Notes: a model not told the origin generated them from the letters alone. A stretch of DNA of 49,126 nt from Candidatus Omnitrophota bacterium (GCA_043805735.1 JAZDHS010000034.1:1-49126), one strand, 5' to 3'. Shown: positions 9,913-45,043, counted from the stretch's first letter. Made by a program: numbers and translations.

Positions 9913-11823
9913 TTAAACTCCCACCGTTGTCTTATCGTAGATCATTTCCTTTAATTTAAGGGCCTTTCGCTTTTTGTCCATATGCGCTATCATAATATGC
10001 GCCGCTTTAACCGGGTCGCTCTCGAAGGCCCATTTTCCGCCGACTAGCTGCTCAACATCTTGAGTAAGAAATTTCATTACCTCTTTACTGCCCGCGGCCG
10101 GCATCGGCGTACCGAATACTACCAATGCCCCGGAGGCCACGAAATACCAACCGATAGCAATAGCCTTTTCGCTCATCCATTCTGGAGCGGCCCCGGCAAC
10201 AGGAAGCTCGTCAATACCTTCGCCGATACCGCCTTCGCGCACCATATTGGCGCAGGCAATTAAAATCCGGGAATTATCCACGCAGGAGCCGGTATGTAAC
10301 ACCGGCGGTATACCCACGGCCGCGCAGACTTCCTGCAGACCTTTTCCGGCAAATTTCTTGGCGGCCTCCGGCACTAAAAGCCCTTCCTTGGCGCAGGCCA
10401 ACGCTGAACAGCCGGTCTGAACCACCAGTACATCATGTTTGATTAACTCTTTGACCATCGTAATATGGCTTTGCCCGCTCTGCAGTTTGGGATTATCACA
10501 TCCCACTACACCGGCGACTCCGCGGATCCTGCCGTTGATAATGGCATCATTAAGCGGACGATAGGTCGCCCGGAATTTCCCGCCGAGATAATAGTAAATA
10601 TTTTCGGCGGTGAATCCGGCGATCAAATCCATCTTCTCTTTAGGAATATTTACTTTCGCGGCATCGCGACGGGGATAATTCTCGATCGCCCTTCTGACCA
10701 GCTCTTTGGCCACTTCTAAAGCCCGCTCTTCGCTAAACTCAACGTGTTCCATGCCGGGAAACTTGGCCTTAGGATGCGTGGAAAACAACTTCGTATGAAA
10801 ACATGATGCCACCGTAGTCAACCCCGGCATAATACACTGCAGGTCCACCACCATTGCCTCCACCGCTCCGGTAGCAATCGCCAGTTCCTGCTGTAAAAAG
10901 CTACCGGCGACCGGCACGCCCCTTCTCATTAAAATCTCATTTGCCGTACAGCAGATGCCGGCAACGGTAATGCCTTTTGCGCCTTTACTCTTGGCCAGCT
11001 TTAGCATCTCTTCGCTTTGGGCAGCGGTGACAATGACGTCGCTTAATAGAGGAACGTGTCCATGGACAATAATATTAACCTCATCTTCTTTAAGCACGCC
11101 TAAATTTACCTGCGCGCGCAAGGCCTGCGGCGCGCCAAAAAGGATGTCGCTGGCCTCGGTGGCAATCATCGAGCCGCCCCAACCGTCAGCAAGCGCCGCT
11201 TTCATCGAACCAAGTATGATATTGCGGTAGTCATTGTCCACGCCAATGTGCGTGCGGGACATCATTTCTACTATCGGCCGGTCTATGCCCAGCGGAAGGA
11301 TATTTAGTTTTTTCCAGATATTTTGTTGCTTTAGCGGTGCGCGCTTAAAGAAGACCGGCGGTTCATGCTGGCTGCCAAAGTCCGCACCCATCGCCTTACC
11401 CACTTCCGCGGCAATCTCTTTTGCTTGTCGTCCTTCGACTTTAATGCCGTATTCCTGGGCGACCTTACGTAATTTCTCCTCGTCCTTAACCTCGTAACTG
11501 AGGGCCTTACCCGCGCCACAGAGATAGAGCGTATGCGCGATTTCTCGTCCATGGTCGGAGTGACAGGCGCTTCCCGCTGCCGTGTGGCGGGCGATATTAC
11601 GGGCGCTGATAATATCAGCGGTTGCCCCGCAAGTGCCGACTGATGGCCCTTCGCCGAAAGGGTCAATTCTACAGGGCCCTAAGTTGCAATTCTTGCAGCA
11701 TAATCCCAAAACGCCAAAGCCACAGTGCGGGTCTTGAGCATCGTATCGCTCCCAAACCATATCAATACCGCAACTTTGGCAGATCTCTTTTAGTTTTTCG
11801 ATACTCGGTCTTTCCTTGTTCAC
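9913..11823 (-). CDS. cooS: Anaerobic Ni-CO dehydrogenase catalytic subunit (CooS/AcsA)
   Basis: B/D-cluster CGFG...CCKNCNLGPC; C-cluster ligands HGH, ICCT, LQC, VGC, TGC, GSCVDNSR; MSEKA. The GTG start is supplied by the repeat element. Confidence 0.97.
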   Translation of the reverse strand: MNKERPSIEKLKEICQSCGIDMVWERYDAQDPHCGFGVLGLCCKNCNLGPCRIDPFGEGPSVGTCGATADIISARNIARHTAAGSACHSDHGREIAHTLYLCGAGKALSYEVKDEEKLRKVAQEYGIKVEGRQAKEIAAEVGKAMGADFGSQHEPPVFFKRAPLKQQNIWKKLNILPLGIDRPIVEMMSRTHIGVDNDYRNIILGSMKAALADGWGGSMIATEASDILFGAPQALRAQVNLGVLKEDEVNIIVHGHVPLLSDVIVTAAQSEEMLKLAKSKGAKGITVAGICCTANEILMRRGVPVAGSFLQQELAIATGAVEAMVVDLQCIMPGLTTVASCFHTKLFSTHPKAKFPGMEHVEFSEERALEVAKELVRRAIENYPRRDAAKVNIPKEKMDLIAGFTAENIYYYLGGKFRATYRPLNDAIINGRIRGVAGVVGCDNPKLQSGQSHITMVKELIKHDVLVVQTGCSALACAKEGLLVPEAAKKFAGKGLQEVCAAVGIPPVLHTGSCVDNSRILIACANMVREGGIGEGIDELPVAGAAPEWMSEKAIAIGWYFVASGALVVFGTPMPAAGSKEVMKFLTQDVEQLVGGKWAFESDPVKAAHIMIAHMDKKRKALKLKEMIYDKTTVGV

Positions 11824-11946
11824 CCCGCCCTTCCTTTCCCGGCGTTGCCAATATAACTATTGCTTCTGCTTAATGTTATCTGCATTGCTTAAACCTTTTT
11901 ACTGTACTTTTGCTTGTTATGCATTGCTTGTTTAGGAAGGGCGGGG
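11823..11946. mobile_element. MITE-like element, copy 1 (124 bp)
   Basis: 13-bp TIR CCCCGCCCTTCCT...AGGAAGGGCGGGG flanked by direct repeat TTCA (11819-22, 11947-50). Confidence 0.85.
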
Positions 11947-11947
11947 T

Positions 11948-12715
11948 TCATTGATTAAGTTCCTCCTCCAAAAACCTTTTCAGCTCGGCAATTTTTTTCT
12001 CGCAGGCAAGCGGCGCTTTTATTCCTGTAGCGCCTTGATCTGACTTTAAAAAATCTTGGTCAAAATCTATAGCCGCGGCCAGTTGAATCTTTCCTAATTG
12101 CTTACGGATAAACTCGTTATCCCGCGCAGTTCTTATTTTGTTGCCCAGCGCATACACGCGCTTGATTCCGATATCACGGGCAAAAGTGGCAATCTTCTCA
12201 GCTGTGCCCAGCGAATTCAAAGAAGGCTCCACTACGATTAATACGGCATTGCAGGACTCCGCCGTTCCCCGGCCAAAATGTTCCACGCCCGCTTCCATAT
12301 CCAGGACAACATGCTCATTTTTTTTGACGATCAAATGCTGCAGCAGGTTTTTAATAAACGTATTCTCCGGACACATGCAGCCAGTGCCGCCTTCTTCCAC
12401 TGCGCCCATCACAATCAACTTGATATTGTCTTTTTGTTTGGAAAAGGCATCCGGGATATCATCAATTTTGGGATTGAGCTGAAAAAAGGACTTGTTGCCT
12501 TTTTCTACGCCCATGCGGCGGTGGATCAATTCCTCCATCTCGGCAATCGGCTGAATCTTGTCAAAATTTTCAAACCCCAGCGCGTGCGCTAAATTGGAAT
12601 CGGGATCGCAATCCACCGCCAAGACTTCTTTCGCTTCCTGCGCCAGGGCGCGGATAAAAAGGCTGGCCAGCGTGGTCTTGCCCACGCCGCCTTTTCCGCT
12701 AAAGGCTACTTTCAT
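11948..12715 (-). CDS. cooC: CODH Ni-insertion ATPase
   Basis: GKGGVGKT, DCDPDSNL, GTGCMCPEN, DMEAGVEH; upstream of cooS. Confidence 0.93.
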   Translation of the reverse strand: MKVAFSGKGGVGKTTLASLFIRALAQEAKEVLAVDCDPDSNLAHALGFENFDKIQPIAEMEELIHRRMGVEKGNKSFFQLNPKIDDIPDAFSKQKDNIKLIVMGAVEEGGTGCMCPENTFIKNLLQHLIVKKNEHVVLDMEAGVEHFGRGTAESCNAVLIVVEPSLNSLGTAEKIATFARDIGIKRVYALGNKIRTARDNEFIRKQLGKIQLAAAIDFDQDFLKSDQGATGIKAPLACEKKIAELKRFLEEELNQ

Positions 12716-13575
12716 TTGATCTGCATCTTAAAAGCATTGACTACGTTACGCATCAGTATAGTTACGGTAAGCGGCCCGACGCCGCCGGGAACCGGTGTAA
12801 TGAAACTGGCGCGTTCTTTGGCCGGTTCAAATTCGATATCTCCGACAATCTTATCACCCACGCGATTAATGCCGACATCGATGACAATCGCGCCCTCTTT
12901 TATCCAAGCGCCTTTAACCAACTCCGCCCTTCCCACGGCTACGACCAGGATCTCCGCCCGTTTTACGTGCTCCGGTAAAACACCTCTTTCTCCGGTAGCG
13001 ATATGGCAGACTGTGGTCGTGACAAATTCATTCAGTAATAATAAACTCAAAGGCTTACCGACAATTTCCGAATGTCCTACCACTACGGCTTCTTTGCCGT
13101 AAAGTTTCACCGGACAGGATTTAATCAATTCCATGGCTGCCTGGGCCGTACAAGGCGCCAGCTGCGAATCGCCTAAAAGCACATGCCCGAGATTTTCCGG
13201 ATGTATACCCTCGGCATCTTTCTCCGGGGTAATACTGCTCATCACCCGGCGGTGGTCGATCCCCTTCGGTAAAGGCAGCTGCACGATTATACCGGAAACG
13301 TCCTCTTTTTCATTCAGGACGCCGATGATATCGATGAGCTCTTTTTCTTGAGTATTCATGCCTAAAGTCTCAAGCATATATTCTATCCCCAGGGCCTCGG
13401 CATTTTTCTTCTGCGATTTGATATAAACCGCCGAAGCGGGATTATCTCCCACTTGTATACTGACCAAGCGCGGACTCCGGCCCGACTTTTGCCTGAGAGC
13501 GTCGAGTTCACTTTTTAGTCTTTCCTTAATCTGCTCGGCAATGACTTTTCCTTCTAACAATTGTGCGCCCATCAT
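12712..13575 (-). CDS. folD: Methylene-THF dehydrogenase/cyclohydrolase
   Basis: VQLPLP, PCT, GHSEIVGKP, IDVGINR, TPVPGGVGPLT. Confidence 0.96.
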   Translation of the reverse strand: MMGAQLLEGKVIAEQIKERLKSELDALRQKSGRSPRLVSIQVGDNPASAVYIKSQKKNAEALGIEYMLETLGMNTQEKELIDIIGVLNEKEDVSGIIVQLPLPKGIDHRRVMSSITPEKDAEGIHPENLGHVLLGDSQLAPCTAQAAMELIKSCPVKLYGKEAVVVGHSEIVGKPLSLLLLNEFVTTTVCHIATGERGVLPEHVKRAEILVVAVGRAELVKGAWIKEGAIVIDVGINRVGDKIVGDIEFEPAKERASFITPVPGGVGPLTVTILMRNVVNAFKMQIK

Positions 13576-13605
13576 CCGGCTCCTTTACTAATTGGTAAAA
13601 ACTTC

Positions 13606-14478
13606 TTAGCGCTTTATTTTGCTTAAGATCTCCCGTGTGGGCTCGACCTTATTTAGAGAATAGAAATGTAGGCCCGGGGCCCCGCCGGAGAGTAATTCGT
13701 TGCATTGTCCAACGGCAAATTCAACGCCGGCCCGATAAGTGCCTTGGGCATCACCATCCAGCGGTTTAAAGATGTCGTGGACACGCTCAGGGATTGTGGC
13801 TCCGCAAGCCTTGCAGAACCTAAGCAGGGTTTGATAGTCGGTGATCGGTATGATTCCGGGAAGAATCCGCACATTGACCCCGACTTTCTTTGCCCTTTCC
13901 AAGTAGGCGAAATAATCCTTATTGTCAAAGAAAAGCTGGGTGATCACAAACTCGGCTCCGGCATCGATCTTAATTTTTAAATATTTTGCATCAGTTTCCT
14001 TGTCGGGACAATTAATATGCCCTTCGGGAAAACCAGCCACCCCAATGCTGAAGAAGTCTCCACAAGAGCGGATCAGTTTAATCAGTTGATAACAGTACTC
14101 CAGGCCATCCGGAGCAGGAGTCCAAAACTTTTCGCCTTCCGGCGCATCTCCCCGCAGGGCCAGGATATTACAAATGTTTCTTTTTTTCATTTCTCCGATT
14201 ATAGTTTTCAACTGTTCTTTGCTGTGGCCCACACAAGTAAAATGATGCATCACTGGTACGCCGGTGCGCTTTTGTAAATCGTCGACAATCTGTATTGTAA
14301 GCTCTCTAGTGCTTCCACCGGCGCCATAGGTTACGGAAAACCAATCCGCCCCCAGGCCGGCATAAACTTCCGCGGTTTCCGGCAGTTTTTCTCTACCTTT
14401 TTCGGTTTTTGGCGGGAAAAACTCATAAGAATAGGTACGCTTTTTTTCTTTTAAAATGTCCGCGATTCTTCTAATCAT
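13606..14478 (-). CDS. metF: Methylene-THF reductase (E. coli-like type, no adjacent metV)
   Basis: SYEFFPPKT, SVTYGAGGSTR, LALRGD, ITQLFFD, GLHFYSLN. Confidence 0.95.
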   Translation of the reverse strand: MIRRIADILKEKKRTYSYEFFPPKTEKGREKLPETAEVYAGLGADWFSVTYGAGGSTRELTIQIVDDLQKRTGVPVMHHFTCVGHSKEQLKTIIGEMKKRNICNILALRGDAPEGEKFWTPAPDGLEYCYQLIKLIRSCGDFFSIGVAGFPEGHINCPDKETDAKYLKIKIDAGAEFVITQLFFDNKDYFAYLERAKKVGVNVRILPGIIPITDYQTLLRFCKACGATIPERVHDIFKPLDGDAQGTYRAGVEFAVGQCNELLSGGAPGLHFYSLNKVEPTREILSKIKR

Positions 14479-15128
14479 TTTCCCTCTCCTTTTTTTTCAA
14501 GTTCCGACATCATCTTCTGTTTCGTGATCATCAACACCTCGTCTTTAATCACACCTATCTCCACTTCCAGGGGGTCGAGGATTTCTCTTATTTCTATGAT
14601 AAAGGTTTTGTCAGCAATGTAATTCAAATTTATTTCTACGTTAATCAGGGCGGACTGAAAAGCAGCGGCAAGACACTCTAGCGCCACCCTCACATCACTT
14701 ACTAGTTTTATATTTCCCTTTTCGGCCAAAAGCGAGCATAATTTTATGGCCCGGAAGCAGGATTTACATACTTCCAGAGGTGCAATCAGCGCTTCTCGAA
14801 AAGCCTCCTGTAAAACTTCATCGCGTTTTTTGTTATCGGCTGCGCTTTCTTTGGCAAGGGCATAGGCACTGGCCACTTTCTTGTATCCGGCGACGTCTTC
14901 ATCAACCTGGCGCAACAAATGTTCGCGTAATTCCTCCGTAGAAGCCAGAGTTTTTTTAATCTCTTCTTCAACGGCTTTATATTTTTCTTTGCCCACGGTA
15001 AAATTGGCGACCATGCTCAATAGGGCCACACCGGCCGAAGCGACCAGCGCCGCGGCTGAGCCGCCACCGGGAGCGGGCTTTTTTGCGGCCAGGTCATCGA
15101 GGTACTTTTTCAAATCATCGGCATACAT
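14475..15128 (-). CDS. fchA: Methenyl-THF cyclohydrolase / cyclodeaminase (FTCD_C)
   Basis: LAAKKPAPGGGSAAA, GN..LVSD, NVEINL. Confidence 0.88.
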   Translation of the reverse strand: MYADDLKKYLDDLAAKKPAPGGGSAAALVASAGVALLSMVANFTVGKEKYKAVEEEIKKTLASTEELREHLLRQVDEDVAGYKKVASAYALAKESAADNKKRDEVLQEAFREALIAPLEVCKSCFRAIKLCSLLAEKGNIKLVSDVRVALECLAAAFQSALINVEINLNYIADKTFIIEIREILDPLEVEIGVIKDEVLMITKQKMMSELEKKGEGK

Positions 15129-15133
15129 AGTTT

Positions 15134-15532
15134 TTACTGAAATTGTTCCCTGACGCGGGGACGGTTAAGAAAATAAATAATCGCGATGTCTGCGGCAACA
15201 CTAAACGAAATCAGGTACATATTGCGAAAATACATCGGCTCTAAGCGATAACTATTAAAGATGGCTTTGCCGACCACCAGGTGCGGAATATCCACTATCG
15301 CTAAAAAGGTAATCAGGCCGCGGCCATACTCTTCCCGACGCAACAGCCGATAGCCGCCGATAATAAACCCCACCAGAATGGCTGAGGAAATCATCCAGAC
15401 CAGCTGCTGCGGTGGGTAATAGCGGACAAATAAATCGTAGGTAAAGACGCGCAGCGGAAAAAAAGCCTGTAACAGAAAGAAGCTATTGCATACTACCAGC
15501 CACATTCCAACCAAGAGCAGCCCTAAGTCCAT
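15134..15532 (-). CDS. Hypothetical 4-TM membrane protein
   Basis: Hydrophobic helices, C-terminal YFLNRPRVREQF; TAATG overlap with the fhs stop. Confidence 0.7.
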   Translation of the reverse strand: MDLGLLLVGMWLVVCNSFFLLQAFFPLRVFTYDLFVRYYPPQQLVWMISSAILVGFIIGGYRLLRREEYGRGLITFLAIVDIPHLVVGKAIFNSYRLEPMYFRNMYLISFSVAADIAIIYFLNRPRVREQFQ

Positions 15533-17235
15533 TAGAATAATCCTTCAACTTCACCGCGTTGGTTTAAGTCCATTTTTTCTCCCGCCGGATGCGTGGGTAA
15601 CCCCGGCATCGTGCGCATCGTGCCGCAGAGCGGATAAAGGAACCCCGCGCCTACCGATGCGCGCACGACGCGAATGGGCAGCGTAAAGTCTTTCGGCCGG
15701 CCTTTAAGCGCCGGGTCATGAGAGAGAGAAAGATGCGTCTTGGCCATACAAATCGGAAGCCGATCATATCCGAGGCGGGTAAATAGTTCGATATCTCTTT
15801 CGGCCTGGGCTTCATAATGCACCTCTTTTGCCCCGTAAATCTTAGTAGCGATGGTTTCAATCTTCTTTTTAATCGGCCAATCTAACGGATAAAGAAATTT
15901 AAAATTGGACTTTTTTTCGCAGGCCCGCACTACCGCCTGCGCCAATTCCTTACCGCCCAGGGAACCCTTGGCCCAGACCTCGCTTAACACGGCCTCCTCG
16001 GCCCCGGCGGCCAGCGCCTTTTTGCGGATTAATTCAATTTCATTTTTCGTATCGCTGGTAAAGTGGTTAATCGCCACCACTACCGGCACACCAAACAGTC
16101 GCATATTTTCAATCTGTTTTTCCAGATTGGCGCAACCGACTTCTAAGGCCGCTAAGTTTTCCTGCGCTAAGCCTGGATCTAAAGGCTTGCCGGCCACCAC
16201 CGTAAACTTTCCGGAGTGCATTTTCAGCGCCCGCACCGTGCAAACCATCACCACACAATTGGGCCTAAGGCCGCTTTCTCGGCATTTAATATCAAAAAAC
16301 TTCTCCGCTCCGCAATCCGCCCCAAACCCGGACTCGGTGACCACATAATCGGAAAGTTTCAGCGCCATTTTATCGGCGATAATCGAGTTGTTTCCGTGGG
16401 CAATATTGGCAAAAGGCCCGGCATGGACAAAACAGGGCGTATTATCCAGCGTCTGTAATAAATTCGGTTTTATCGCATCTTTTAAAAGCACCGCCATGGC
16501 TCCGGCAACTTTAATATCTTCCGTAGTGACTGCTTTACCGTCTTTGGTCATCGCCAAGATAATCCGGCCCAAACGCTGGCGCAAGTCTTTTAAGCCACTG
16601 GCCAGGGCAAGGATTGCCATTACTTCCGAGGCCACAGTAATGTCAAAACCGGAATCGCGCTCAAATCCGTCTTCCGGGCCGCCCAAACCGATTTTAATAT
16701 TGCGCAGGAATCTATCGGAAACATCAACCACGCGCCGCCACATTACCGTATTGGGGTCGATATTTAAAGGGTTTCTTTTATACATCGAGTTATCCAAAAA
16801 CGCGGCGCAGAGATTGTGGGCAAGCCCGACCGCGTGGACATCGCCGGTTAAATGCAGATTAAAATCCTCCATCGGCACGACCTGAGCATAACCTCCGCCG
16901 GCGGCCCCGCCCTTAATACCAAAGACCGGACCCAACGACGGTTGGCGGATACAGACTGAGGCCTGTTTACCGATGCGGTTCAAAGACATCGCCAGGCCAA
17001 TGGTGGTTACGGTCTTGCCCTCACCCAGGGGCGTAGGGGTAATCGCCGTGACATCAATGTATTTACCGTCTTTTTTATTTTTAACCCGCTCCAGAACGGA
17101 CAAGGATACCTTGGCTTTATAATTGCCGTAAAGCTCCAGCTCTTTCTCTTTAATGCCCAATATCCGCGCGATCTGCGTAATCGGTTTTAACCGCGCTTTA
17201 CGCACTATTTCTAAATCTGACGGCACTTTCTTCAT
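15532..17235 (-). CDS. fhs: Formate--tetrahydrofolate ligase
   Basis: TPTPLGEGKT, GIKGGAAGGGY, HAGPFANIAHG, TESGFGAD, TMPGLP. Confidence 0.97.
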   Translation of the reverse strand: MKKVPSDLEIVRKARLKPITQIARILGIKEKELELYGNYKAKVSLSVLERVKNKKDGKYIDVTAITPTPLGEGKTVTTIGLAMSLNRIGKQASVCIRQPSLGPVFGIKGGAAGGGYAQVVPMEDFNLHLTGDVHAVGLAHNLCAAFLDNSMYKRNPLNIDPNTVMWRRVVDVSDRFLRNIKIGLGGPEDGFERDSGFDITVASEVMAILALASGLKDLRQRLGRIILAMTKDGKAVTTEDIKVAGAMAVLLKDAIKPNLLQTLDNTPCFVHAGPFANIAHGNNSIIADKMALKLSDYVVTESGFGADCGAEKFFDIKCRESGLRPNCVVMVCTVRALKMHSGKFTVVAGKPLDPGLAQENLAALEVGCANLEKQIENMRLFGVPVVVAINHFTSDTKNEIELIRKKALAAGAEEAVLSEVWAKGSLGGKELAQAVVRACEKKSNFKFLYPLDWPIKKKIETIATKIYGAKEVHYEAQAERDIELFTRLGYDRLPICMAKTHLSLSHDPALKGRPKDFTLPIRVVRASVGAGFLYPLCGTMRTMPGLPTHPAGEKMDLNQRGEVEGLF

Positions 17236-17239
17236 TTTT

Positions 17240-17938
17240 TTAGTTACTCCCTAGTTCTGTTTTTATTTTCTCTAATTTCTTTAAATATTTTTCACAATCA
17301 CTCACCGTATAAAGTGGCGTGCCTAAACCACAAGGCAAGGTCAGCAAATCGCCCTCTTGAAAATCCTTAACGTCTTCTTGTTTCTCTACGCCCCAGGAAA
17401 TTTTTTTTCCGCTACGGTAACGGCTGTATTTGGTCAGGTCGTACTTAGAGGCATCGAAACTGATAATGTCGATGGGCGCGGAAAATAAGCGGTCCCAATC
17501 CATATTGCCGCAGGTATGTACGCCGGAAGTTACCGCGAAGCTGGAAAATAACGCCGCCCATAATTGCCCAAAATCAACCCCGGATTGGCCCAAGGCCGGC
17601 TCATCCAGAAAAAGGATCACCTCTTTGGCCTTCAAGCCGTCCATAATCGCGCTAATGTGCTCTAAAGGCCGTTGCACGGCTTCATCCTGTTTATATCCGC
17701 CGAGCATCAGCGTAGCCGGCCCGACGCATTGGATTTTGACAATGTCAAAGTTATTTTTTTTAAACGCCTCTAAGCAACTCAATCGCCCGGGGTGCTTAAT
17801 GTACTCCAGCATCGCGTCACCCTTTTTGGGCAGCTCGGGTAAAAAAGGGATGTCGTGCTTAAGGCTATAGGCCAGCGCCGCATCCACGTCCTCCAGGGGT
17901 AACGAGCCGACTTGAGTAATGATTTTACCTTTAAGCAT
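17240..17938 (-). CDS. Short folate-independent 'core' methionine synthase, MesB-like (232 aa)
   Basis: GSLP, PFLPELP, VKIQCVGP, FLDEP, GVHTCG..DW, ISFDA, WG, PCGLG with putative Zn ligands His/Cys/Asp/Cys; start taken as ATG at 17938, 2 nt after the folE stop. Confidence 0.7.
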   Translation of the reverse strand: MLKGKIITQVGSLPLEDVDAALAYSLKHDIPFLPELPKKGDAMLEYIKHPGRLSCLEAFKKNNFDIVKIQCVGPATLMLGGYKQDEAVQRPLEHISAIMDGLKAKEVILFLDEPALGQSGVDFGQLWAALFSSFAVTSGVHTCGNMDWDRLFSAPIDIISFDASKYDLTKYSRYRSGKKISWGVEKQEDVKDFQEGDLLTLPCGLGTPLYTVSDCEKYLKKLEKIKTELGSN

Positions 17939-17940
17939 GT

Positions 17941-18498
17941 TTAAGATTTTATCAGAGCCAAAGTTTCTGACCGGGTTTTGGAATTGGTACGGAAAATTCC
18001 TCTGACCGCGCTGGTCACGGTGCAAGCGCCGGGTTTTTTCACGCCGCGCATCGACATACAAAGATGATCGGCTTCAATAACTACCATCACTCCCTTAGGC
18101 TTGAGTTTTTTCATAATCACATCGGCAATCTGGGTAGTCAGCCTTTCTTGAACCTGCAGGCGTTTAGAAAATATATCGACGACTCTAGCGAGTTTGCTCA
18201 ATCCGGTCACTCGGTTTTCCTGAGGCACATAGGCCACATGGGCCTTGCCGACAAAAGGCAGGAGATGGTGTTCGCAGACACTATAGAGAGGGATATTTTT
18301 TATTAAGACAATCTCATCATGCCCTTCGCCAAGCAACACCTCCAGCTCTCGCGATGGGTCTTGTTTTATGCCGCTAAAAATTTCCTCATACATATCGGCA
18401 ACGCGCTGGGGGGTATCCAAAAGGTCGGTGCGCTCGGCATTTTCCCCAATCGCCTCCAAAATCATCTTCACTGCCTTGATAATTTTCGGTTTATCCAT
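17941..18498 (-). CDS. folE: GTP cyclohydrolase I
   Basis: [37 protein letters not shown]. Confidence 0.96.
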
Positions 18499-18503
18499 AT
18501 TTT

Positions 18504-20054
18504 TCAATGCTTGAAGTGGCGCATGCCGGTAAAAATCATGCTGATGTTGAATTTATCACAGGCGGCAATAATTTCGGCGTCGCCGATAGAGCCGCCCGGC
18601 TGAATAATCGCACCGATACCGGCCTGGTGCGCCTGTTCAATGGCATCAGGCTTAGGGAAAAAGGCATCGCTGGCCAGGCTGGCGTCTTTGGTTTTAAAGT
18701 CGGCCTTACGGCAGGCAATAATCGTGGAATCGACCCGGGACATCTGCCCGGCGCCCACGCCAACGGTCTTGGTCCCTTGCGCCAGGACGATCGCGTTACT
18801 GCGGACGTGTTTGACAATCTTCCAGGCAAACAACAGCGACTCCAGTTCATTTTTGCTCGGAGCCCTTTTCGTCACTACTTTTAAGTCGCTCATCTGGACC
18901 ATCGCCACATCCATATCCTGCACCAAGAGACCGCCGACCACCTTCTTATAGTCTTTCTCAGCGCAGCTGGTCTTTTTAAAATTAGGAACTTCTAACAGCC
19001 GCAGGTTTTTCTTTTTCGCGAAGAGCTCTTTTGCCTCTTCGTCATAGCCGGGCGCGATAATACACTCCACAAAATCGGCTTCCTTTAAAATTACCTCGGC
19101 CAGTTTTTTGTCTACCCTACCGTTAAAACCGACGATGCTGCCGAAGGCGCTTAAGCGGTCGCAGTCTAAGGCATCGAGATAGGCCCCAGATAATGAATCG
19201 GACACGGCCGCGCCGCAAGGGTTAGTATGTTTAATGATACTGGCCGCCGGCGCGTCAAACTCCTTGACGATTTCAATGGCGGCATTTAAATCGAGGATGT
19301 TATTAAACGAGAGCTCCTTGCCTTGCAGCTGCCTGGCGTTACTAATACCGGATTCTTGCGCTGCCGGATCGCGATAAAAGGCCGCCTTCTGGTGCGGGTT
19401 TTCACCGTAGCGTAAATCCTGCGCTTTGATAAAAGAAAGCTCAAGCTTCTCCTGAGACTTACCGGCATAATTACTCAAATAATTATAGATTGCTCCGTCG
19501 TATTCCGCGGTTCGCTTAAACACCTCTACGGCCAATTTCTTGAGCGTTTCCTCTGAAAGCGCGCCGTTATTCCTTTTGAGCTCGCTAATCACATCGGGAT
19601 AGGTGCGCGGATCGGTAATTACCGCTACCGAGTGATGGTTTTTCGCCGCGCTTCTGAGCATCGACGGTCCACCGATATCAATATTTTCGATTGCCTCCTC
19701 CAGCGTTACGTCCGCCTTGGCCACCGTTTTTTCAAAGGGATAGAGGTTGACTACAACCATATCGATCATTTCAATATCATGGGCCTGGGCCTGTTCCATA
19801 TGCTCTTTATTATCGCGCAGTGCCAGGAGCCCACCGTGTATTTTGGGATGCAGGGTTTTTACGCGCCCGTGCATCATCTCCGGAAACCCCGTGTATTCAG
19901 AAACGTCTTTAACGGTTATACCCAGGCTCTTAATGGACTTGGCCGTGCCCCCGGTAGATAGTATCTCCACGCCAAATTGATTCAAGGTTTTTACCAAATC
20001 TTCGATTCCGCTTTTGTCCGAAACACTGATTAAGGCTCGCTTAATTTTGACCAT
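18504..20054 (-). CDS. purH: AICAR transformylase / IMP cyclohydrolase
   Basis: [52 protein letters not shown]. Confidence 0.98.
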
Positions 20055-20065
20055 TATGCCCCCTT

Positions 20066-20098
20066 AAAAAATAAAAGACCTGTTTAAAAACCCAGGCC
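20066..20098 (-). terminator. Intrinsic terminator (riboswitch expression platform)
   Basis: Minus strand GGCCUG...CAGGUC stem followed by UUUUAUUUUUU; the 5' arm overlaps aptamer P3. Confidence 0.75.
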
Positions 20099-20150
20099 GA
20101 CGATTTTTTCTTCATACCTCACCATGGTCGCTTCCATGCTGCCAGAGGTA
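20090..20150 (-). ncRNA. ZMP/ZTP (pfl) riboswitch-like aptamer
   Basis: Minus strand: P1 UACCUC/GAGGUA, CUGGC junction, P2 CAUGG/CCAUG, A-rich linker, P3 AUCGUCGGCCUGGGU; lies upstream of purH, the canonical context. Confidence 0.75.
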
Positions 20151-20174
20151 AATATTGCTCTTTTTAAGGCCTTT

Positions 20175-20203
20175 ATTATAGAACGGAATGCAGCAGAAAA
20201 CAA
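20175..20203 (-). promoter_or_regulatory. Sigma70 promoter of the purH/C1/acs operon
   Basis: TTGTTT-17-TATAAT. Confidence 0.7.
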
Positions 20204-20217
20204 GAAAAAAAATAAGT

Positions 20218-20703
20218 TCAAGTTTTTTTTCTACTTTTGAGTTTATAATCAATTTTCTTGAAGAAATTCATATAATCAACAATGAGCCGGCCGTTAATAT
20301 GGTCGATTTCATGCATGATCACCCGGGCCAAAAGCCCTTTGGCTTTAAGTTCTACTGTTTTGCCTTTTTCATCTAAACCCACGATAATGATTTCACTGGG
20401 GCGGGCGACGTCCACAACCGTGTTGGGAACGCTTAAGCAACCTTCGCCCATTACCTCTTTCGTTTTATTGGACTTAATAATCTTGGGGTTAGCGAGTTTC
20501 AGCGGCCCTTCCCCGATATCGACTACAATAATCTTGCGGTTAACTCCCACCTGCGGCGCGGCCAGCCCAATCCCCTGGGCGCCGTGCATCGTCGCGAGCA
20601 TATCTTCAAACAGGGCCAGTTCGGCCCCAAGAATCTCTTCTACCGCCGCACACTCCTGGCGCAAAACAAAATCGGGATATTGTTTAATCGGTAAAATTGC
20701 CAT
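20218..20703 (-). CDS. def: Peptide deformylase
   Basis: GIGLAAPQ, EGCLS, HEIDH; ATG at 20703 with GAGG RBS. Confidence 0.95.
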   Translation of the reverse strand: MAILPIKQYPDFVLRQECAAVEEILGAELALFEDMLATMHGAQGIGLAAPQVGVNRKIIVVDIGEGPLKLANPKIIKSNKTKEVMGEGCLSVPNTVVDVARPSEIIIVGLDEKGKTVELKAKGLLARVIMHEIDHINGRLIVDYMNFFKKIDYKLKSRKKT

Positions 20704-20729
20704 CGCTACCTCAGACAAGCAGTGTGCCG

Positions 20730-20891
20730 TTAGTCTTTTTTGCGGGCTTTTTCCTGGCACTGCGTATGAAAGTTACAGCGGGTGCAGCAGACATATTCCT
20801 CGTTACGCTCGCCGCGGTACCATTTGGTATCGCAGGTCCAATAAATCTGGCAGCGTTCGCAGCACTGCATTTCCTCTTTTTTTTCTTTCAT
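20730..20891 (-). CDS. 53-aa Cys-rich protein (2x CCxRCx5C), not in the ORF track
   Basis: MKEKKEEMQCCERCQIYWTCDTKWYRGERNEEYVCCTRCNFHTQCQEKARKKD; ATGA overlap with the suhB stop; fills the gap before def. Confidence 0.75.
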   Translation of the reverse strand: MKEKKEEMQCCERCQIYWTCDTKWYRGERNEEYVCCTRCNFHTQCQEKARKKD

Positions 20892-21670
20892 TGTTCGGCC
20901 CTCTTTATTATGTTGACCACTTGCTTATGCACAATGCCGTTGGAAGCAATATATTCGCGGGTAGCTAAAGTCCAGGGTTCACCCGCAAAATCTGTAGATT
21001 CACCACCAGCCTCTTCAACCAAAAGTAACCCGGCGGCAAAATCCCAGACCTTGTCGCTAAATTCAATTTCCATTTCGGCTCTCCCTGCGGCCACATAAGT
21101 TAAACTGCGGGCGGTAGAGCCAAACATGCGCACATTAAACACTTGCTCGGAAAGTTCGCCCAGGCTTTTGAGCATCCGCTCTTTATCTAAACGGATGCTG
21201 CTGTCATAGATCATCGTCGCTTCGCGCAAAGGCCGGCGGGAAACACGAATCCTCTTGCCGTTAGAGAAAGCCCCTTTTCCCTTTTGGGCCTGGTAAAGCT
21301 CGCGCGTAAAAGGCATATAGATTACCCCGGCCACTACTTTTTCCTCAAAGGCCAGGGCTAGAGAAATACCAAAGACATCAATTTGGTGGATGAAGTTATG
21401 CGTCCCGTCAATCGGATCAATAATCCAACGAAATCCCGAATGTGAAGGCAAATGCGGGCTCTCTTCGGATAAAATGCCGTCATTGGGGAAATGCTTTTTA
21501 ATTGCTTTAAGTATAAGCGATTCGGCCTTTTTATCAATATTAGTCACTAAATCGCGATCACCCTTGGCGCGGATACTCAGTTTTTTGCCGAAAGCCGCCA
21601 ACAGCATTTTTCCGACTTCTAAAGCCGCTTTGACCGCTAGCGCCTGTCTTTTGTCGATTTCTTTACTCAC
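20888..21670 (-). CDS. suhB: Inositol monophosphatase family protein
   Basis: DLVT..D, SEE, WIIDPIDGTHNF, WDFAAG; GTG start supplied by the repeat element. Confidence 0.9.
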   Translation of the reverse strand: MSKEIDKRQALAVKAALEVGKMLLAAFGKKLSIRAKGDRDLVTNIDKKAESLILKAIKKHFPNDGILSEESPHLPSHSGFRWIIDPIDGTHNFIHQIDVFGISLALAFEEKVVAGVIYMPFTRELYQAQKGKGAFSNGKRIRVSRRPLREATMIYDSSIRLDKERMLKSLGELSEQVFNVRMFGSTARSLTYVAAGRAEMEIEFSDKVWDFAAGLLLVEEAGGESTDFAGEPWTLATREYIASNGIVHKQVVNIIKRAEQ

Positions 21671-21791
21671 CCCGCCCTTCCTTTCCTGGCGTGGACATCA
21701 ATATTAAGCCTTGCTTATTATGTCGCGCAGATAACATCCTGCTCTTCCTTTTAGTTAGCCAATGCGATGCGGCTTTTTAGGAAGGGCGGGG
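21670..21791. mobile_element. MITE-like element, copy 2 (122 bp)
   Basis: Same 13-bp TIRs as copy 1, flanked by direct repeat CTCA (21666-69, 21792-95). Confidence 0.85.
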
Positions 21792-21798
21792 CTCATCT

Positions 21799-22464
21799 TT
21801 AATTATTGCTTTCTCGCGGGCCGAAAATCTTACTGCCGATGCGCACAATGTTGGCGCCTTCTTCGATCGCCACGCGGTAGGAATCGCTCATCCCCATTGA
21901 AAGAAAACGCATCTCGACGTTGGTTAGGCCCTGTCTTTTTAGAGCATCAAACAATTTTTTCGTCTCACGGAAATAGGGTCGGTATTGCTCGGGGGTGGCG
22001 CTGAGTGGGCCCATGGTCATCAACCCCATCACTTTAATATGCTTAAGCAAGGCAATGGCCTTAATTAAGCCTTCGGCCTCCTGTGGCGTAACTCCGCCTT
22101 TTTGTACTTCACCGGCGCAATTAATCTCAATAAGTGCGGGCATAACCTTATTTTGAGCGCCCGCCGCTTTTTCCAATTCCTCGGCCAGCGCCAGTGAATC
22201 AAGAGTTTCAATCAAATCAAAAATTTTGACGGCCTTCTTGGCCTTATTTTTCTGCAGCCGCCCGATAAAGTGCCACTTTACTTTCGCGCCGATTAGGCCA
22301 TGTGCCAGCTCGGCTTCCTGCACGTAGTTCTCACCGACAATGAGTATCCCGGCGGAAATCGCCTGTTCAATCTCGGCTACGCTGCGGGACTTAGCCGCAG
22401 CCACTAATTGCACCTCTCTAGGCAACTCCTGCAACAACTGGCGGACGTTTTCGGCAATCATCAA
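21799..22464 (-). CDS. yggS: PLP homeostasis protein
   Basis: GENYVQE, WHFIGRLQKNK, GLMTM, LSMGMSDSY, VRIGS. Confidence 0.95.
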   Translation of the reverse strand: MMIAENVRQLLQELPREVQLVAAAKSRSVAEIEQAISAGILIVGENYVQEAELAHGLIGAKVKWHFIGRLQKNKAKKAVKIFDLIETLDSLALAEELEKAAGAQNKVMPALIEINCAGEVQKGGVTPQEAEGLIKAIALLKHIKVMGLMTMGPLSATPEQYRPYFRETKKLFDALKRQGLTNVEMRFLSMGMSDSYRVAIEEGANIVRIGSKIFGPRESNN

Positions 22465-23129
22465 GGTAACAAATTGACAGTAACGGCCATAACCAACATA
22501 CTAATCCCTAAGTAAAGCAACATTATCCCGCAAAAACGCTGAAAAATTATAGAAAGCATCGGCTTTCTTTCTAAAAGCTTAGGCAAGCCACCGGCTAAAG
22601 AACCGGCTAAAAGTATCGGCGACAGAAGCGTTCCTAAAGCAAACGCTAAACCTAATAATGCCCCATGCAACAAATTCTGGGCATGAAAACCAATGTAGGC
22701 CAGCACTCCCAATAAAGGCAGGCAGGGCGCCGCTCCCAACACCAAGCCCAGCACCAACGCCTCCTGCAGGGTGCTTTTTACGCCTGGTTTCTGGAATGGT
22801 TTACAAAAATGTAAGGGCAGCGACTTACCACTGACAACCAAAATGCCCAAAAGAACAATAAACGCGCCGCTAACGTATTGGATGATCAGCGCGGCATTAG
22901 TCTGATAGAAGCGCGCCACGATATACTGGCCAATACCGGCGCTGACTATGCTCAAGATAATATAGGGCACAATCCGCCCCAGCGAAAAAGCCAGGCTTAA
23001 TTTCAGGCCGCCCCTCCACCCCTTTTGCGTGCCGGCAATAAAGGGCAGCACAATCGGCGCGCAAAATGCAAGACATGGCCCCCAGCTTAAAGCGACTCCA
23101 GTGAGAAAAAGGTCGATATATATTTTCAA
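22461..23129 (-). CDS. DsbD_2/TauE-like membrane protein
   Basis: About 6 TM helices with GPCLAFC and APCLP Cys motifs. Confidence 0.75.
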   Translation of the reverse strand: MKIYIDLFLTGVALSWGPCLAFCAPIVLPFIAGTQKGWRGGLKLSLAFSLGRIVPYIILSIVSAGIGQYIVARFYQTNAALIIQYVSGAFIVLLGILVVSGKSLPLHFCKPFQKPGVKSTLQEALVLGLVLGAAPCLPLLGVLAYIGFHAQNLLHGALLGLAFALGTLLSPILLAGSLAGGLPKLLERKPMLSIIFQRFCGIMLLYLGISMLVMAVTVNLLP

Positions 23130-44404: not shown

Positions 44405-45043
44405 ATGTTTTTGAATGAAGAACTAAAGAGCCAAATTAAAGAAAGGTTTAAAGATTTAAAAGATGATGTAACGCTTGTGGTTTTCACACAGCAAAGTGAA
44501 TGCCAGTATTGTGAAGAAAACCAAGAACTTGCAAAAGAAGTATCAGAAATATCGGACAAAATCTCTACAAAAGTCTTCGATTTCCAGTCAGATAAAGAAC
44601 AGGCCAAAAAGTACGGTATCGATAAAGTACCTGCCATAGCTATTATAGGTAAAGTCGATTACGGCATACGCTTATATGGCATACCAACCGGATATGACTT
44701 TGTATCACTTATAGAGGGCATTCGAATCGTTTCAACGGGAGAAACACAGCTAACTAGCGAAGAAAATAAATATCTGGCTAATCTTGATAAGGATACTCAC
44801 TTGCAAGTCTTCGTATCGCCCGATTGTCCACACTGCCCCTCAGCAACAATAGTTGCCCAACAAATGGCAATAGCAAGCAGCAAAGTTAAAGCGGACATGA
44901 TCGACTCTTCGCAATTCCCTCATTTGGCGAAAAAATACAATGTAAGAGGAGTACCTCACACAGTGATTAATGAAACATCACATCAGGAAGGTGCAGCACC
45001 GATCTCTATGATCATTGCAAAAATCAACGAAACGCTGGGCTAA
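44405..45043 (+). CDS. Protein disulfide oxidoreductase (PDO, two thioredoxin folds)
   Basis: CQYC and CPHC active sites, GIP.GYDF, VPHT. Confidence 0.9.
   Translation: MFLNEELKSQIKERFKDLKDDVTLVVFTQQSECQYCEENQELAKEVSEISDKISTKVFDFQSDKEQAKKYGIDKVPAIAIIGKVDYGIRLYGIPTGYDFVSLIEGIRIVSTGETQLTSEENKYLANLDKDTHLQVFVSPDCPHCPSATIVAQQMAIASSKVKADMIDSSQFPHLAKKYNVRGVPHTVINETSHQEGAAPISMIIAKINETLG

Follow-up and report, generated by a model that had tools for sequence, protein, structure and literature searches.

Short inverted-repeat elements on gene start codons in Candidatus Omnitrophota and their putative nuclease-driven movement

How does a gene remain expressed when an insertion lands on its first codon, and what brings the insertion there? 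A stretch of 49,126 nucleotides (nt) from Candidatus Omnitrophota bacterium (GCA_043805735.1, JAZDHS010000034.1:1-49126; the window, below) raises this question twice, as short elements with inverted ends lie on the start codons of cooS and of a suhB-like gene, and in both cases a new start codon stands at the far end of the insertion. The window is contig C34 of a 1.31-Mb draft genome of 61 contigs and 48% G+C (G000). Both insertions belong to a family with 31 copies in this genome, one of which is a 286-bp parent whose only open reading frame (ORF) encodes a GIY-YIG nuclease. The reading that we favor, and consider probable, is that of a tiny DNA transposon driven by this nuclease, which enters RTGAR at gene starts, has the two window elements as non-autonomous copies, and leaves the host gene expressed through coupled re-initiation of translation.

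Two insertions that rebuild the start codons of cooS and suhB

The element at cooS measures 124 bp (11823..11946, minus strand) and that at suhB 122 bp (21670..21791, minus strand). Both are bounded by the same perfect 13-bp inverted ends, CCCCGCCCTTCCT and AGGAAGGGCGGGG, differ in their interiors, and lie between 4-bp target duplications, which on the coding strand read TGAA at cooS (upstream copy, 11947..11950; downstream copy, 11819..11822; both minus strand) and TGAG at suhB (upstream copy, 21792..21795; downstream copy, 21666..21669; both minus strand). On the plus strand the sites are TTCA-CCCCGCCCTTCCT...AGGAAGGGCGGGG-TTCA and CTCA-CCCCGCCCTTCCT...AGGAAGGGCGGGG-CTCA; in the coding direction they become ATGAA-element-TGAACAAG at cooS and ATGAG-element-TGAGTAAA at suhB. 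The exact 13-mer occurs four times in the window, and with up to 2 mismatches there are six matches against 1.74 expected, a number reached in 1 of 100 shuffles. Two end-like matches with 2 mismatches each, at 12922 and 16905, have no partner and were taken as chance.

Together with position 11951, the upstream TGAA is the old cooS start, ATGAA, and at the other side of the element its last G (11823) and the TG of the downstream copy make up a rebuilt GTG. The suhB site is organized in the same way, with the old ATGAG completed by 21796 and the rebuilt GTG by 21670. Both host genes start at the rebuilt codon, namely, cooS (9913..11823, minus strand; 636 amino acids [aa]; Pfam Prismane, 1.9e-169), encoding the catalytic subunit of CO dehydrogenase, and the suhB-like gene of the inositol monophosphatase family (20888..21670, minus strand; 260 aa; Pfam Inositol_P, 4.9e-69). 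The cooC-type ATPase gene upstream of cooS (11948..12715, minus strand; 255 aa; CbiA-type in Pfam) has its stop codon (11948-11950) inside the upstream target copy, where it overlaps the old cooS ATG (11949-11951), and the insertion leaves this stop untouched. The initial annotation, made from the sequence alone, had described the two elements with their terminal inverted repeats and duplications, and the sequence is as it claimed; its gene names for cooS, cooC, and suhB agree with the Pfam matches, and its new GTG start finds support in orthologous proteins, whose N termini align with the rebuilt start (e.g., MNKEIEARK versus V-SKEIDKRQ).

One family at gene starts throughout the genome

Scanning G000 with the ends alone (up to 2 mismatches, partners within 400 bp) returned 35 pairs. 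Two were discarded, a nested inner pairing at C2:44519 and a pair on C27 with 2+2 mismatches and no duplication; of the remaining 33, 31 constitute the main family and 2 a sister subfamily. The 31 copies range from 49 to 286 bp, and all 31 lie in the same orientation relative to the start codon. Oriented to the neighboring gene, the pentamer upstream of the element is ATGAA in 26 copies, GTGAA in 2, ATGAG in 2, and ATAAA in 1, i.e., [A/G]TGA[A/G] precedes 30 of the 31, and the 4-bp flanks match in 30 of 31 as well. The duplication varies with the site, as TGAA, TGAG, TAAA, and TTTA each appear on both sides of their copy, with TGAA flanking 92 of 99 pooled copies. Directly after 26 of the 31 copies, the rebuilt codon opens an ORF of 100 aa or more. 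Among the other five, the gene is interrupted again downstream in one case, fused to the element ORF in another, and begins with an ATG 3 bases further on in a third, and the last two are followed by ORFs of 36 and 43 aa.

The family occupies at least 31 different genes, whose flanks show no mutual homology. The 11 target genes included in a Pfam scan are all ordinary housekeeping genes unrelated in function (CoaD, IleS, PanC, NusA, KdsB, acetolactate synthase small subunit, AroB, a radical SAM enzyme, RpiB, a flavoprotein, and a response regulator). In 8 of the 11, position 1 of the profile aligns to residues 1 to 5, which indicates that the rebuilt codon is the true N terminus. The 124-bp family is represented by 19 copies with a mean identity of 82.7% and nearly invariant ends; the closest pair is the cooS copy and G000:C20:2580-2703 (98.4% identical). 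The same arrangement was found in G008, a genome of another genus, where an ends-only scan of the first 400 kb gave 23 pairs, 21 of them after RTGAA; of the other two, one follows ATAAA and one occupies a TTTA site, which is no start. The interiors of these copies differ from those in G000. This is a repeat family far beyond chance, and its short copies have every feature that defines a miniature inverted-repeat transposable element (MITE). The initial annotation had proposed a MITE family and, as a check on it, a genome scan by the ends with tabulation of duplications and start codons; the counts above bear it out, and a reversed-pattern control returned zero matches in all 401 genomes of the phylum sampled below.

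Several copies depart from the common form. The 125-bp copy at G000:C32:54944-55068 has TTAA as its downstream flank instead of TGAA and has lost stop and GTG; its second small ORF is in frame with a membrane-protein ORF, to which it likely contributes a 21-residue element-derived N-terminal extension. In the 154-bp copy at G000:C55:8045-8198, the duplicated bases are TAAA and lie one base ahead of the host ATG (ATAAA-element-TAAATG); this copy also contains an internal 26-base palindrome, CCCAGCCCCTGCGCGCAGGGGCTGG, similar to the small hairpins that flank distant GIY-YIG genes in the metagenome loci L234-L238; it may represent a second kind of tiny palindromic insert. The 124-bp copy at G000:C2:44441-44564 includes, 46 bp in, a complete inner 3' end as well as an additional 5' end at 44519, and the 124-bp family may therefore have arisen from two tandem mini-elements; a decayed ..GCGGGGCT.. 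is kept at the equivalent place in many other copies. The two sister-subfamily copies (G000:C20:22068-22175 and C20:25534-25639; ends, CCCCGCCCCTCCA and AGGAGGGGCGGGG; TTTA duplication) interrupt two genes of the NAD-dependent epimerase/dehydratase type at the codons for ..TGGAGF/IGS... Each carries its own ATG followed by MKK(K/R)ILVTGGAG, so that the 3' end, encoding GGAG, rebuilds a replacement N terminus for the interrupted gene. The first of these two genes additionally bears a 124-bp copy on its start codon.

The parent element encodes a GIY-YIG nuclease and borrows its start and stop codons

The longest copy, of 286 bp (G000:C41:2379-2664), has the same ends as the short ones and is spanned as a whole by a 97-aa ORF (C41:2374-2667), which is opened by the host ATG and closed by the TGA of the downstream target copy. 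The inverted ends are themselves coding, the 5' end for NPALP (the protein starts MNPALP) and the 3' end for GRAG. ATG and TGA thus both come from the duplicated target, the TGA overlapping the rebuilt start of the host gene as GTGA, and the parent element itself contributes no start codon and no stop codon.

The 97-aa protein matches the Pfam GIY-YIG family (PF01541, 4.8e-16), and its nearest relatives of solved structure by sequence are the UPF0213 proteins BH0048 (1zg2, 8.3e-9) and EF2693 (1ywl, 2e-6), followed by SLX1 (6.6e-4). An AlphaFold model (predicted local distance difference test score, 84.4) retrieved 1zg2 first in Foldseek and then Slx1 chains (root mean square deviation, 1.7-3.5 A over ~70 residues; 28-32% identity), with I-TevI and UvrC lower. 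In an alignment of 33 nucleases, the catalytic residues G27, R35, H39, and E71 are invariant and Y12, Y14, and Y25 nearly so. Pfam and the predicted structure reveal no DNA-binding domain beyond the catalytic core in the 97 residues. Another GIY-YIG gene of G000 (C33:13579-13773) is an ordinary free-standing UPF0213-like gene, 35% identical to the element nuclease, with a basic N terminus and a start codon of its own and no inverted ends.

An autonomous insertion sequence (IS) with the same ends had been anticipated in the initial annotation. The autonomous element exists, at C41; as for an IS with a transposase, the expectation failed, given that no DDE, HUH, serine, or tyrosine transposase lies between the ends and the GIY-YIG domain is the only ORF. 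Since no pair of ends 400 to 6000 bp apart was found in the G000 assembly, it holds no larger IS with these ends, and the parent has none of the enzyme features that define known IS families. The MITEs are in-frame deletion derivatives of the nuclease ORF. A 109-bp copy in the genome G406 is plainly such an internal deletion, reading MNPALPN...GSSLAKIKTMIGIKRKGRAG, and the 124-bp family of G000 has subterminal sequence in common with the parent, its second small ORF ending in IYIGNAGKGRAG.

Named relatives come almost entirely from one phylum

Homologues of the nuclease numbered 73 (59-77% identity), all named ones from Candidatus Omnitrophota; more generally, the named records that carry the family are almost all from this phylum. 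Nearly all of the 33 aligned homologues start with MNPALP and end with GRAG, and in some of them the reading frame runs through nested or tandem mini-elements. Three homologues (P0018, P0026, and P0066) have a 10-residue in-frame insert inside the YIG motif (..SWIY-PAPARR-SWIYIG..), which looks like a minimal element of the TTTA type within the gene of another element. A metagenome scan by internal peptide words from an eight-sequence alignment, hence blind to the element ends, gave 68 loci. The match extends from residue 1 in 45, and 33 of these 45 have the layout RTGAR-end...end-TGAR followed by a long host ORF; they lie in many different genes, and several represent the same site in different samples. 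Variants with ends TCCC...GGGA rebuild ATG instead of GTG. Diverged lineages retain the layout with other ends (CCCCGCACCTTCT, CCCCGTTAGACC, CCCAGCACCTTCTT, TCCCGCCCTCCC, and TCCCGCACCTC), each matched at the opposite end by its exact complement. Across these relatives, the autonomous form measures 283-289 bp and consists of two 12-14-bp inverted ends and one nuclease ORF of 95-100 aa.

The distribution of short copies was followed with an exact 17-mer (ATGAA plus the end) in a sampled set of 401 genomes of the phylum. It is present in 19, scattered over many families, with 25, 28, and 16 occurrences in three genomes and at most 6 elsewhere. In a wider contig search, ~35 of the 80 listed matches to the 17-mer were rejected as they have no 3' end and come from unrelated phyla, ~70 chance matches being expected in 596 Gb. 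A close nuclease (E <=1e-25) was found in 10 of the 401 genomes, always as a single copy, and specifically in 3 of the 11 genomes with at least three exact pattern matches versus 7 of the 390 others (Fisher, 0.0017). The association of MITEs and nuclease is real and loose, which suggests that the short copies outlive or outrun their enzyme.

More distant GIY-YIG genes (up to 51% identity; L234-L251 and L172-L176) were not counted as members because the start-codon layout is absent; these genes begin with an ATG of their own, and their flanks are small hairpins or transfer RNA (tRNA) fragments. A group of small paralogues (L173 [G008:C1:241340-241570], L180, L182, and L172) is ~48% identical, has its own MYYVY start, and adjoins tRNA genes. 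The L173 gene lies between two copies of a tRNA 5' half, and in L182 and L172 the gene is followed by repeated GTAACGGGGCGTGCCCCGTTAC-like palindromes. These tRNA-adjacent paralogues look like separate selfish lineages that rebuild their target differently.

A precise empty site and signs of movement

Contigs of two public metagenome runs, in which only 5-6% of the sampled words occur, were compared with positions 11001-22500 of the window. Most of the aligned contigs come from other organisms, and only two proved informative. One contig of 151 nt joins 11818 directly to 11947 and skips 128 bases, i.e., the cooS element plus one target copy; 7 of its 115 aligned letters differ, corresponding to a ~94%-identical relative, its depth is 7.8, and 4 letters fit either side of the joint. 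An empty site in a relative, proposed as a check in the initial annotation, is thereby found for cooS in a single record. A second contig ceases to match at exactly 21669, the boundary of the suhB copy, and its remaining letters are too few to place. Among orthologues whose start region was recovered (11 genomes each for cooS and suhB), none has an element. Further signs of movement are tandem copies at regenerated sites, seen in metagenome loci and in G406, the patchy distribution among genomes, and the 98.4% identity of the closest pair of copies. At the loci L190 and L206, from related metagenome strains, the same host gene start holds two element variants that are 74% identical between flanks of 83-87% identity, which would fit independent insertions as well as faster divergence in place.

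Expression of the interrupted genes

For both window copies, the predicted messenger RNA fold includes a 14-bp stem between the ends (minimum free energies, -48.5 kcal/mol with z -4.2 and -50.7 kcal/mol with z -2.4), in which the AGGAAGG motif of the 3' end is paired with the 5' end. The initial annotation took this motif to be supplied by the terminal repeat as a Shine-Dalgarno (SD) sequence. The motif is present and, by the predicted fold, would be paired in the stem rather than free. With AGGAAGG predicted to be buried, the rebuilt GTG is probably served by ribosomes that first translate small ORFs from the old ATG. This ATG and its native ribosome-binding site remain in place, five bases before the stem, and open an ORF across the 5' arm.

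In copies of 49, 85, 121, and 154 bp and in the parent, the ORF from the old ATG runs through to the TGA overlapping the new start. The 124-bp family has a relay of two upstream ORFs (uORFs) instead. The first stops after 20 codons; 3 bases later an ATG, preceded by AAAAGG, opens a second ORF of 21 codons across the 3' arm, which ends on the TGA overlapping the new start. In the cooS copy, uORF1 (11889..11951, minus strand; 20 aa, MNPALPKQAMHNKQKYSKKV, then stop) leads from the old cooS ATG into the element and covers the 5' arm of the stem, and uORF2 (11820..11885, minus strand; 21 aa, MQITLSRSNSYIGNAGKGRAG) begins at the internal ATG after AAAAGG, covers the 3' arm, and has its stop TGA in the downstream target copy, overlapping the cooS GTG. 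The suhB copy has a uORF1 of 13 aa (MSPALPKKPHRIG, then stop; 21755..21796, minus strand) and a uORF2 of 24 aa (21663..21737, minus strand; AAAGGAAG, then ATG), which reads through the 3' arm to a stop 5 nt past the first base of the GTG. The interiors, described at first as divergent, do differ; they are not mere filler, as they carry small ORFs, the second ending on the TGA of the duplicated target.

The ORF stop falls within the downstream target copy in 29 of the 31 copies of G000, the exceptions being the suhB copy and one copy fused to the host ORF. Across the 124-bp family, the ATG of uORF2 is preserved in 19 of 19 copies, indels in uORF2 are absent from all 19, and 0 of 107 substitutions create a stop versus 6.1 expected (P ~0.002, not corrected for shared descent). 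Element length modulo 3 is 1 in 55 of 94 copies, 2 in 24, corresponding to an in-frame N-terminal extension, and 0 in 15, a count that likewise takes no account of shared descent. On neither strand of 11500-22100 did Rfam give a match at E values up to 1. From the predicted stem and the arrangement of the ORFs, we infer a coupling of termination and re-initiation, by which ribosomes recruited through host signals would melt the stem and pass on to the rebuilt start.

Why gene starts?

The occupied sites tend to have native ribosome-binding sites, with an SD-like motif upstream of the old ATG in 22 of 30 sites versus 528 of the 2923 other ATGAA in the genome (Fisher, 8e-11). The pooled target sites, some of which were picked by the ATGAA pattern, show no motif beyond RTGAR other than the usual purine-rich stretch of ribosome-binding sites. 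A crude gene call puts G000 at ~91% coding; in this crude count, ~240 of its 2953 ATGAA sites and 835 of its 9900 TGAA sites are intergenic, and no clearly intergenic copy was observed among the 31. If, as generous assumptions, 200-450 start sites and ~210 neutral intergenic sites were equally open, 29 of 29 copies at starts would have a probability between 1e-9 and 1.5e-5, which argues that selection against gene disruption alone is insufficient for the pattern. In the case of the parent element, both orientation and position are explained by selection for harmlessness and for nuclease expression. As to the short copies, the enzyme may recognize more than the 5 bases, or intergenic copies may be lost quickly.

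A proposed mechanism and its alternatives

We propose that the nuclease would cut the element ends and make a 4-nt staggered cut in the target, with host repair or ligation finishing the move, and that short derivatives of 32-154 bp, in which deletion has left only the ends, would be moved in trans. As the sequence shows, the upstream target copy, along with the host ribosome-binding site, gives the ATG of the element ORF and the downstream copy its TGA, and the last element base plus TG rebuilds GTG for the host gene (ATG where the element ends in A), overlapping the stop as GTGA. In the messenger RNA, the ends would pair and bury the new SD sequence; ribosomes starting at the old ATG would translate one ORF or a relay of two through the stem, stop on the TGA, and re-initiate on the GTG. 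Re-initiation on the overlapping GTG would leave the host gene expressed under its own initiation signals and the insertion nearly harmless. The restriction to start codons would result from a sequence preference for RTGAR plus selection, as only a sense insertion behind a host start would express the nuclease and only there would it be tolerated. On a further step we are more tentative, considering it possible, at slightly less than an even chance, that the family is an undescribed class of prokaryotic transposon, the smallest autonomous one (283-289 bp), in which a structure-specific, Slx1-like GIY-YIG nuclease of ~97 aa acting on an end hairpin or cruciform, along with host repair, replaces a transposase.

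A number of observations weigh against this mechanism. GIY-YIG enzymes are hydrolytic nucleases, not strand-transfer enzymes, and characterized members leave 2-nt 3' overhangs or nicks, which alone do not explain a 4-bp duplication. The close nuclease is always single-copy and, of the 11 genomes with three or more exact matches, was found in only 3; G008, with 28 exact matches, has no nuclease above ~50% identity. The empty site is one contig of 151 nt with 34 letters on the shorter side, and the orthologues are only 56-78% identical at the protein level and hence attest to the absence of an element, not to a base-precise empty site. The copies of the 124-bp family average only 82.7% identity, and the substitution and length tests ignore shared descent among copies. 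Finally, with no target motif beyond RTGAR, the restriction to starts is unexplained if selection is insufficient.

A first alternative is survivorship, which we judge unlikely. Here, the element would enter any TGAA or RTGAA, insertions within genes would be lethal, intergenic copies would soon be deleted from these small genomes, and start-codon copies would persist, since only their base-precise loss would be tolerated. The motif limited to RTGAR, the old copies, the ~91% coding density, the few copies in other places (within genes at TTTA sites, or at a site of unclear nature), and the MITEs persisting in genomes where no cognate nuclease was found are all in its favor. It has to contend with the absence of a clearly intergenic copy among 31, despite ~240 intergenic ATGAA and 835 intergenic TGAA sites and the probabilities of 1e-9 to 1.5e-5 given above, and an autonomous element without its own start or stop makes sense only if it regularly lands on RTGAR at a gene start. 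Homing, to which we assign a low probability though not a negligible one, would have the nuclease break RTGAR and repair copy the element in with 4-nt flank microhomology, the apparent duplication being part of the copied unit. It would require templated repair from four bases, which is very few, at no fewer than 31 genes of a single genome with non-homologous flanks, by a 97-aa enzyme with no DNA-binding domain beyond the catalytic core; nor does homing require the symmetry of the ends, which is maintained by changes on both arms. It does fit the nearly uniform flanks, the host start shared by two element variants less alike than their flanks, and the occurrence of GIY-YIG domains in homing endonucleases and their purely hydrolytic action on DNA.

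We consider it very unlikely that an unseen conventional transposase recognizes the ends, with the GIY-YIG ORF as cargo or secondary invader. Repeats may be missing from a 61-contig draft in which one copy is cut by a contig end, and most MITE-bearing genomes are without the nuclease; against this, G000 has no ends 400-6000 bp apart, in every lineage the nuclease ORF has the ends as its first and last codons and they change with it, the MITEs are in-frame deletions of that ORF, and the nuclease is commoner where copies are numerous (3 of 11 versus 7 of 390 genomes; Fisher, 0.0017). Equally improbable to us is that the copies are domesticated regulatory leaders of the host, i.e., translational attenuators that are no longer mobile. 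The occupied genes are unrelated in function, their orthologues in relatives lack elements, copies occur patchily (19 of 401 genomes), there is a precise empty site, and Rfam gave no match, as opposed to a stable predicted stem that buries the SD sequence, conserved small ORFs, and old copies with nearly invariant ends. Single old copies could nonetheless have acquired a regulatory role atop a mobile origin. A nuclease-driven transposon with start-codon targets remains the reading that we favor.

Implications

If this reading is true, an element whose only enzyme is a GIY-YIG, Slx1-like nuclease joins the short list of enzyme types that move prokaryotic DNA. To our knowledge, 283-289 bp is well below the size of any IS. 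The family would also represent a third harmless route into essential genes beside introns and inteins, via the first codon, with the host's initiation signals turned to its own gene and the ribosomes handed on, and a natural test bed for termination/re-initiation coupling through a stable 14-bp stem. For annotation, it means that dozens of genes per Omnitrophota metagenome-assembled genome may be listed with wrong starts or N-terminal extensions, or be accompanied by spurious small ORFs called "GIY-YIG" or hypothetical. As a compact cassette entering RTGAR at gene starts, the element is a possible tool, and a possible role for UPF0213/YhbQ-like proteins is hinted at.

Comparison with known systems

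No description of such an element was found in full-text searches of the openly available literature. Bacterial MITEs such as the Correia elements of Neisseria, RUP/BOX, and MITEAba12 are short and multicopy, with terminal inverted repeats and a target duplication and without a transposase of their own, and they can alter the expression of neighboring genes. They derive from IS with conventional transposases and land mostly between genes, whereas here the parent codes for a GIY-YIG nuclease and insertion is at the start codon itself, which is entered in one orientation and rebuilt. In the searchable text of a 2024 review of prokaryotic MITEs (PMC10969869), the terms "start codon," "ribosome binding," and "GIY" do not occur. 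The passages of that review on Rickettsia palindromic elements (RPEs) describe selfish short palindromes inside essential genes that are compatible with coding and leave the genes functional, being translated as in-frame inserts inside proteins and having no known enzyme (PMC10969869). In contrast to RPEs, the family described here sits at the first codon and mostly outside the host protein, the in-frame fusion class making up 24 of 94 copies.

Systems with one enzyme gene, often single-copy, and many short palindromic non-autonomous copies at a fixed short target word are known from IS200/IS605-PATE and REP/RAYT (REPIN). These employ an HUH tyrosine transposase and subterminal hairpins, have no terminal inverted repeats or duplication, and are not found on start codons, unlike the present family with its GIY-YIG enzyme, terminal repeats, and 4-bp duplication. 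The GIY-YIG homing genes (I-TevI and the Seg/Mob genes of T4-like phages) likewise place a selfish GIY-YIG gene beside or within essential genes without lethality. Their enzymes, however, have a C-terminal DNA-binding domain and act on one cognate site via repair, with no inverted ends or duplication, and I-TevI is a weaker match to the element nuclease than Slx1/UPF0213 by both sequence and fold. The closest proteins are the minimal GIY-YIG domains of Slx1 and bacterial UPF0213 (YhbQ-like) proteins (PDB 1zg2, 1ywl, 6seh, and 7cq2). Slx1 is a structure-specific nuclease on branched DNA, which would suit element ends able to form a hairpin or cruciform. In its sections on these groups, a 2006 survey (PMC1564403) presents the prokaryotic Slx1-like members as minimal, mostly vertically inherited proteins with a predicted role in repair and traces the selfish GIY-YIG groups to the lineage of UvrC rather than to Slx1. 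With inteins and self-splicing introns, finally, the family shares the invasion of essential genes with a silent phenotype; inteins and introns are silent through their removal at the protein or RNA level, whereas the elements described here would be silent through re-initiation, with nothing removed.

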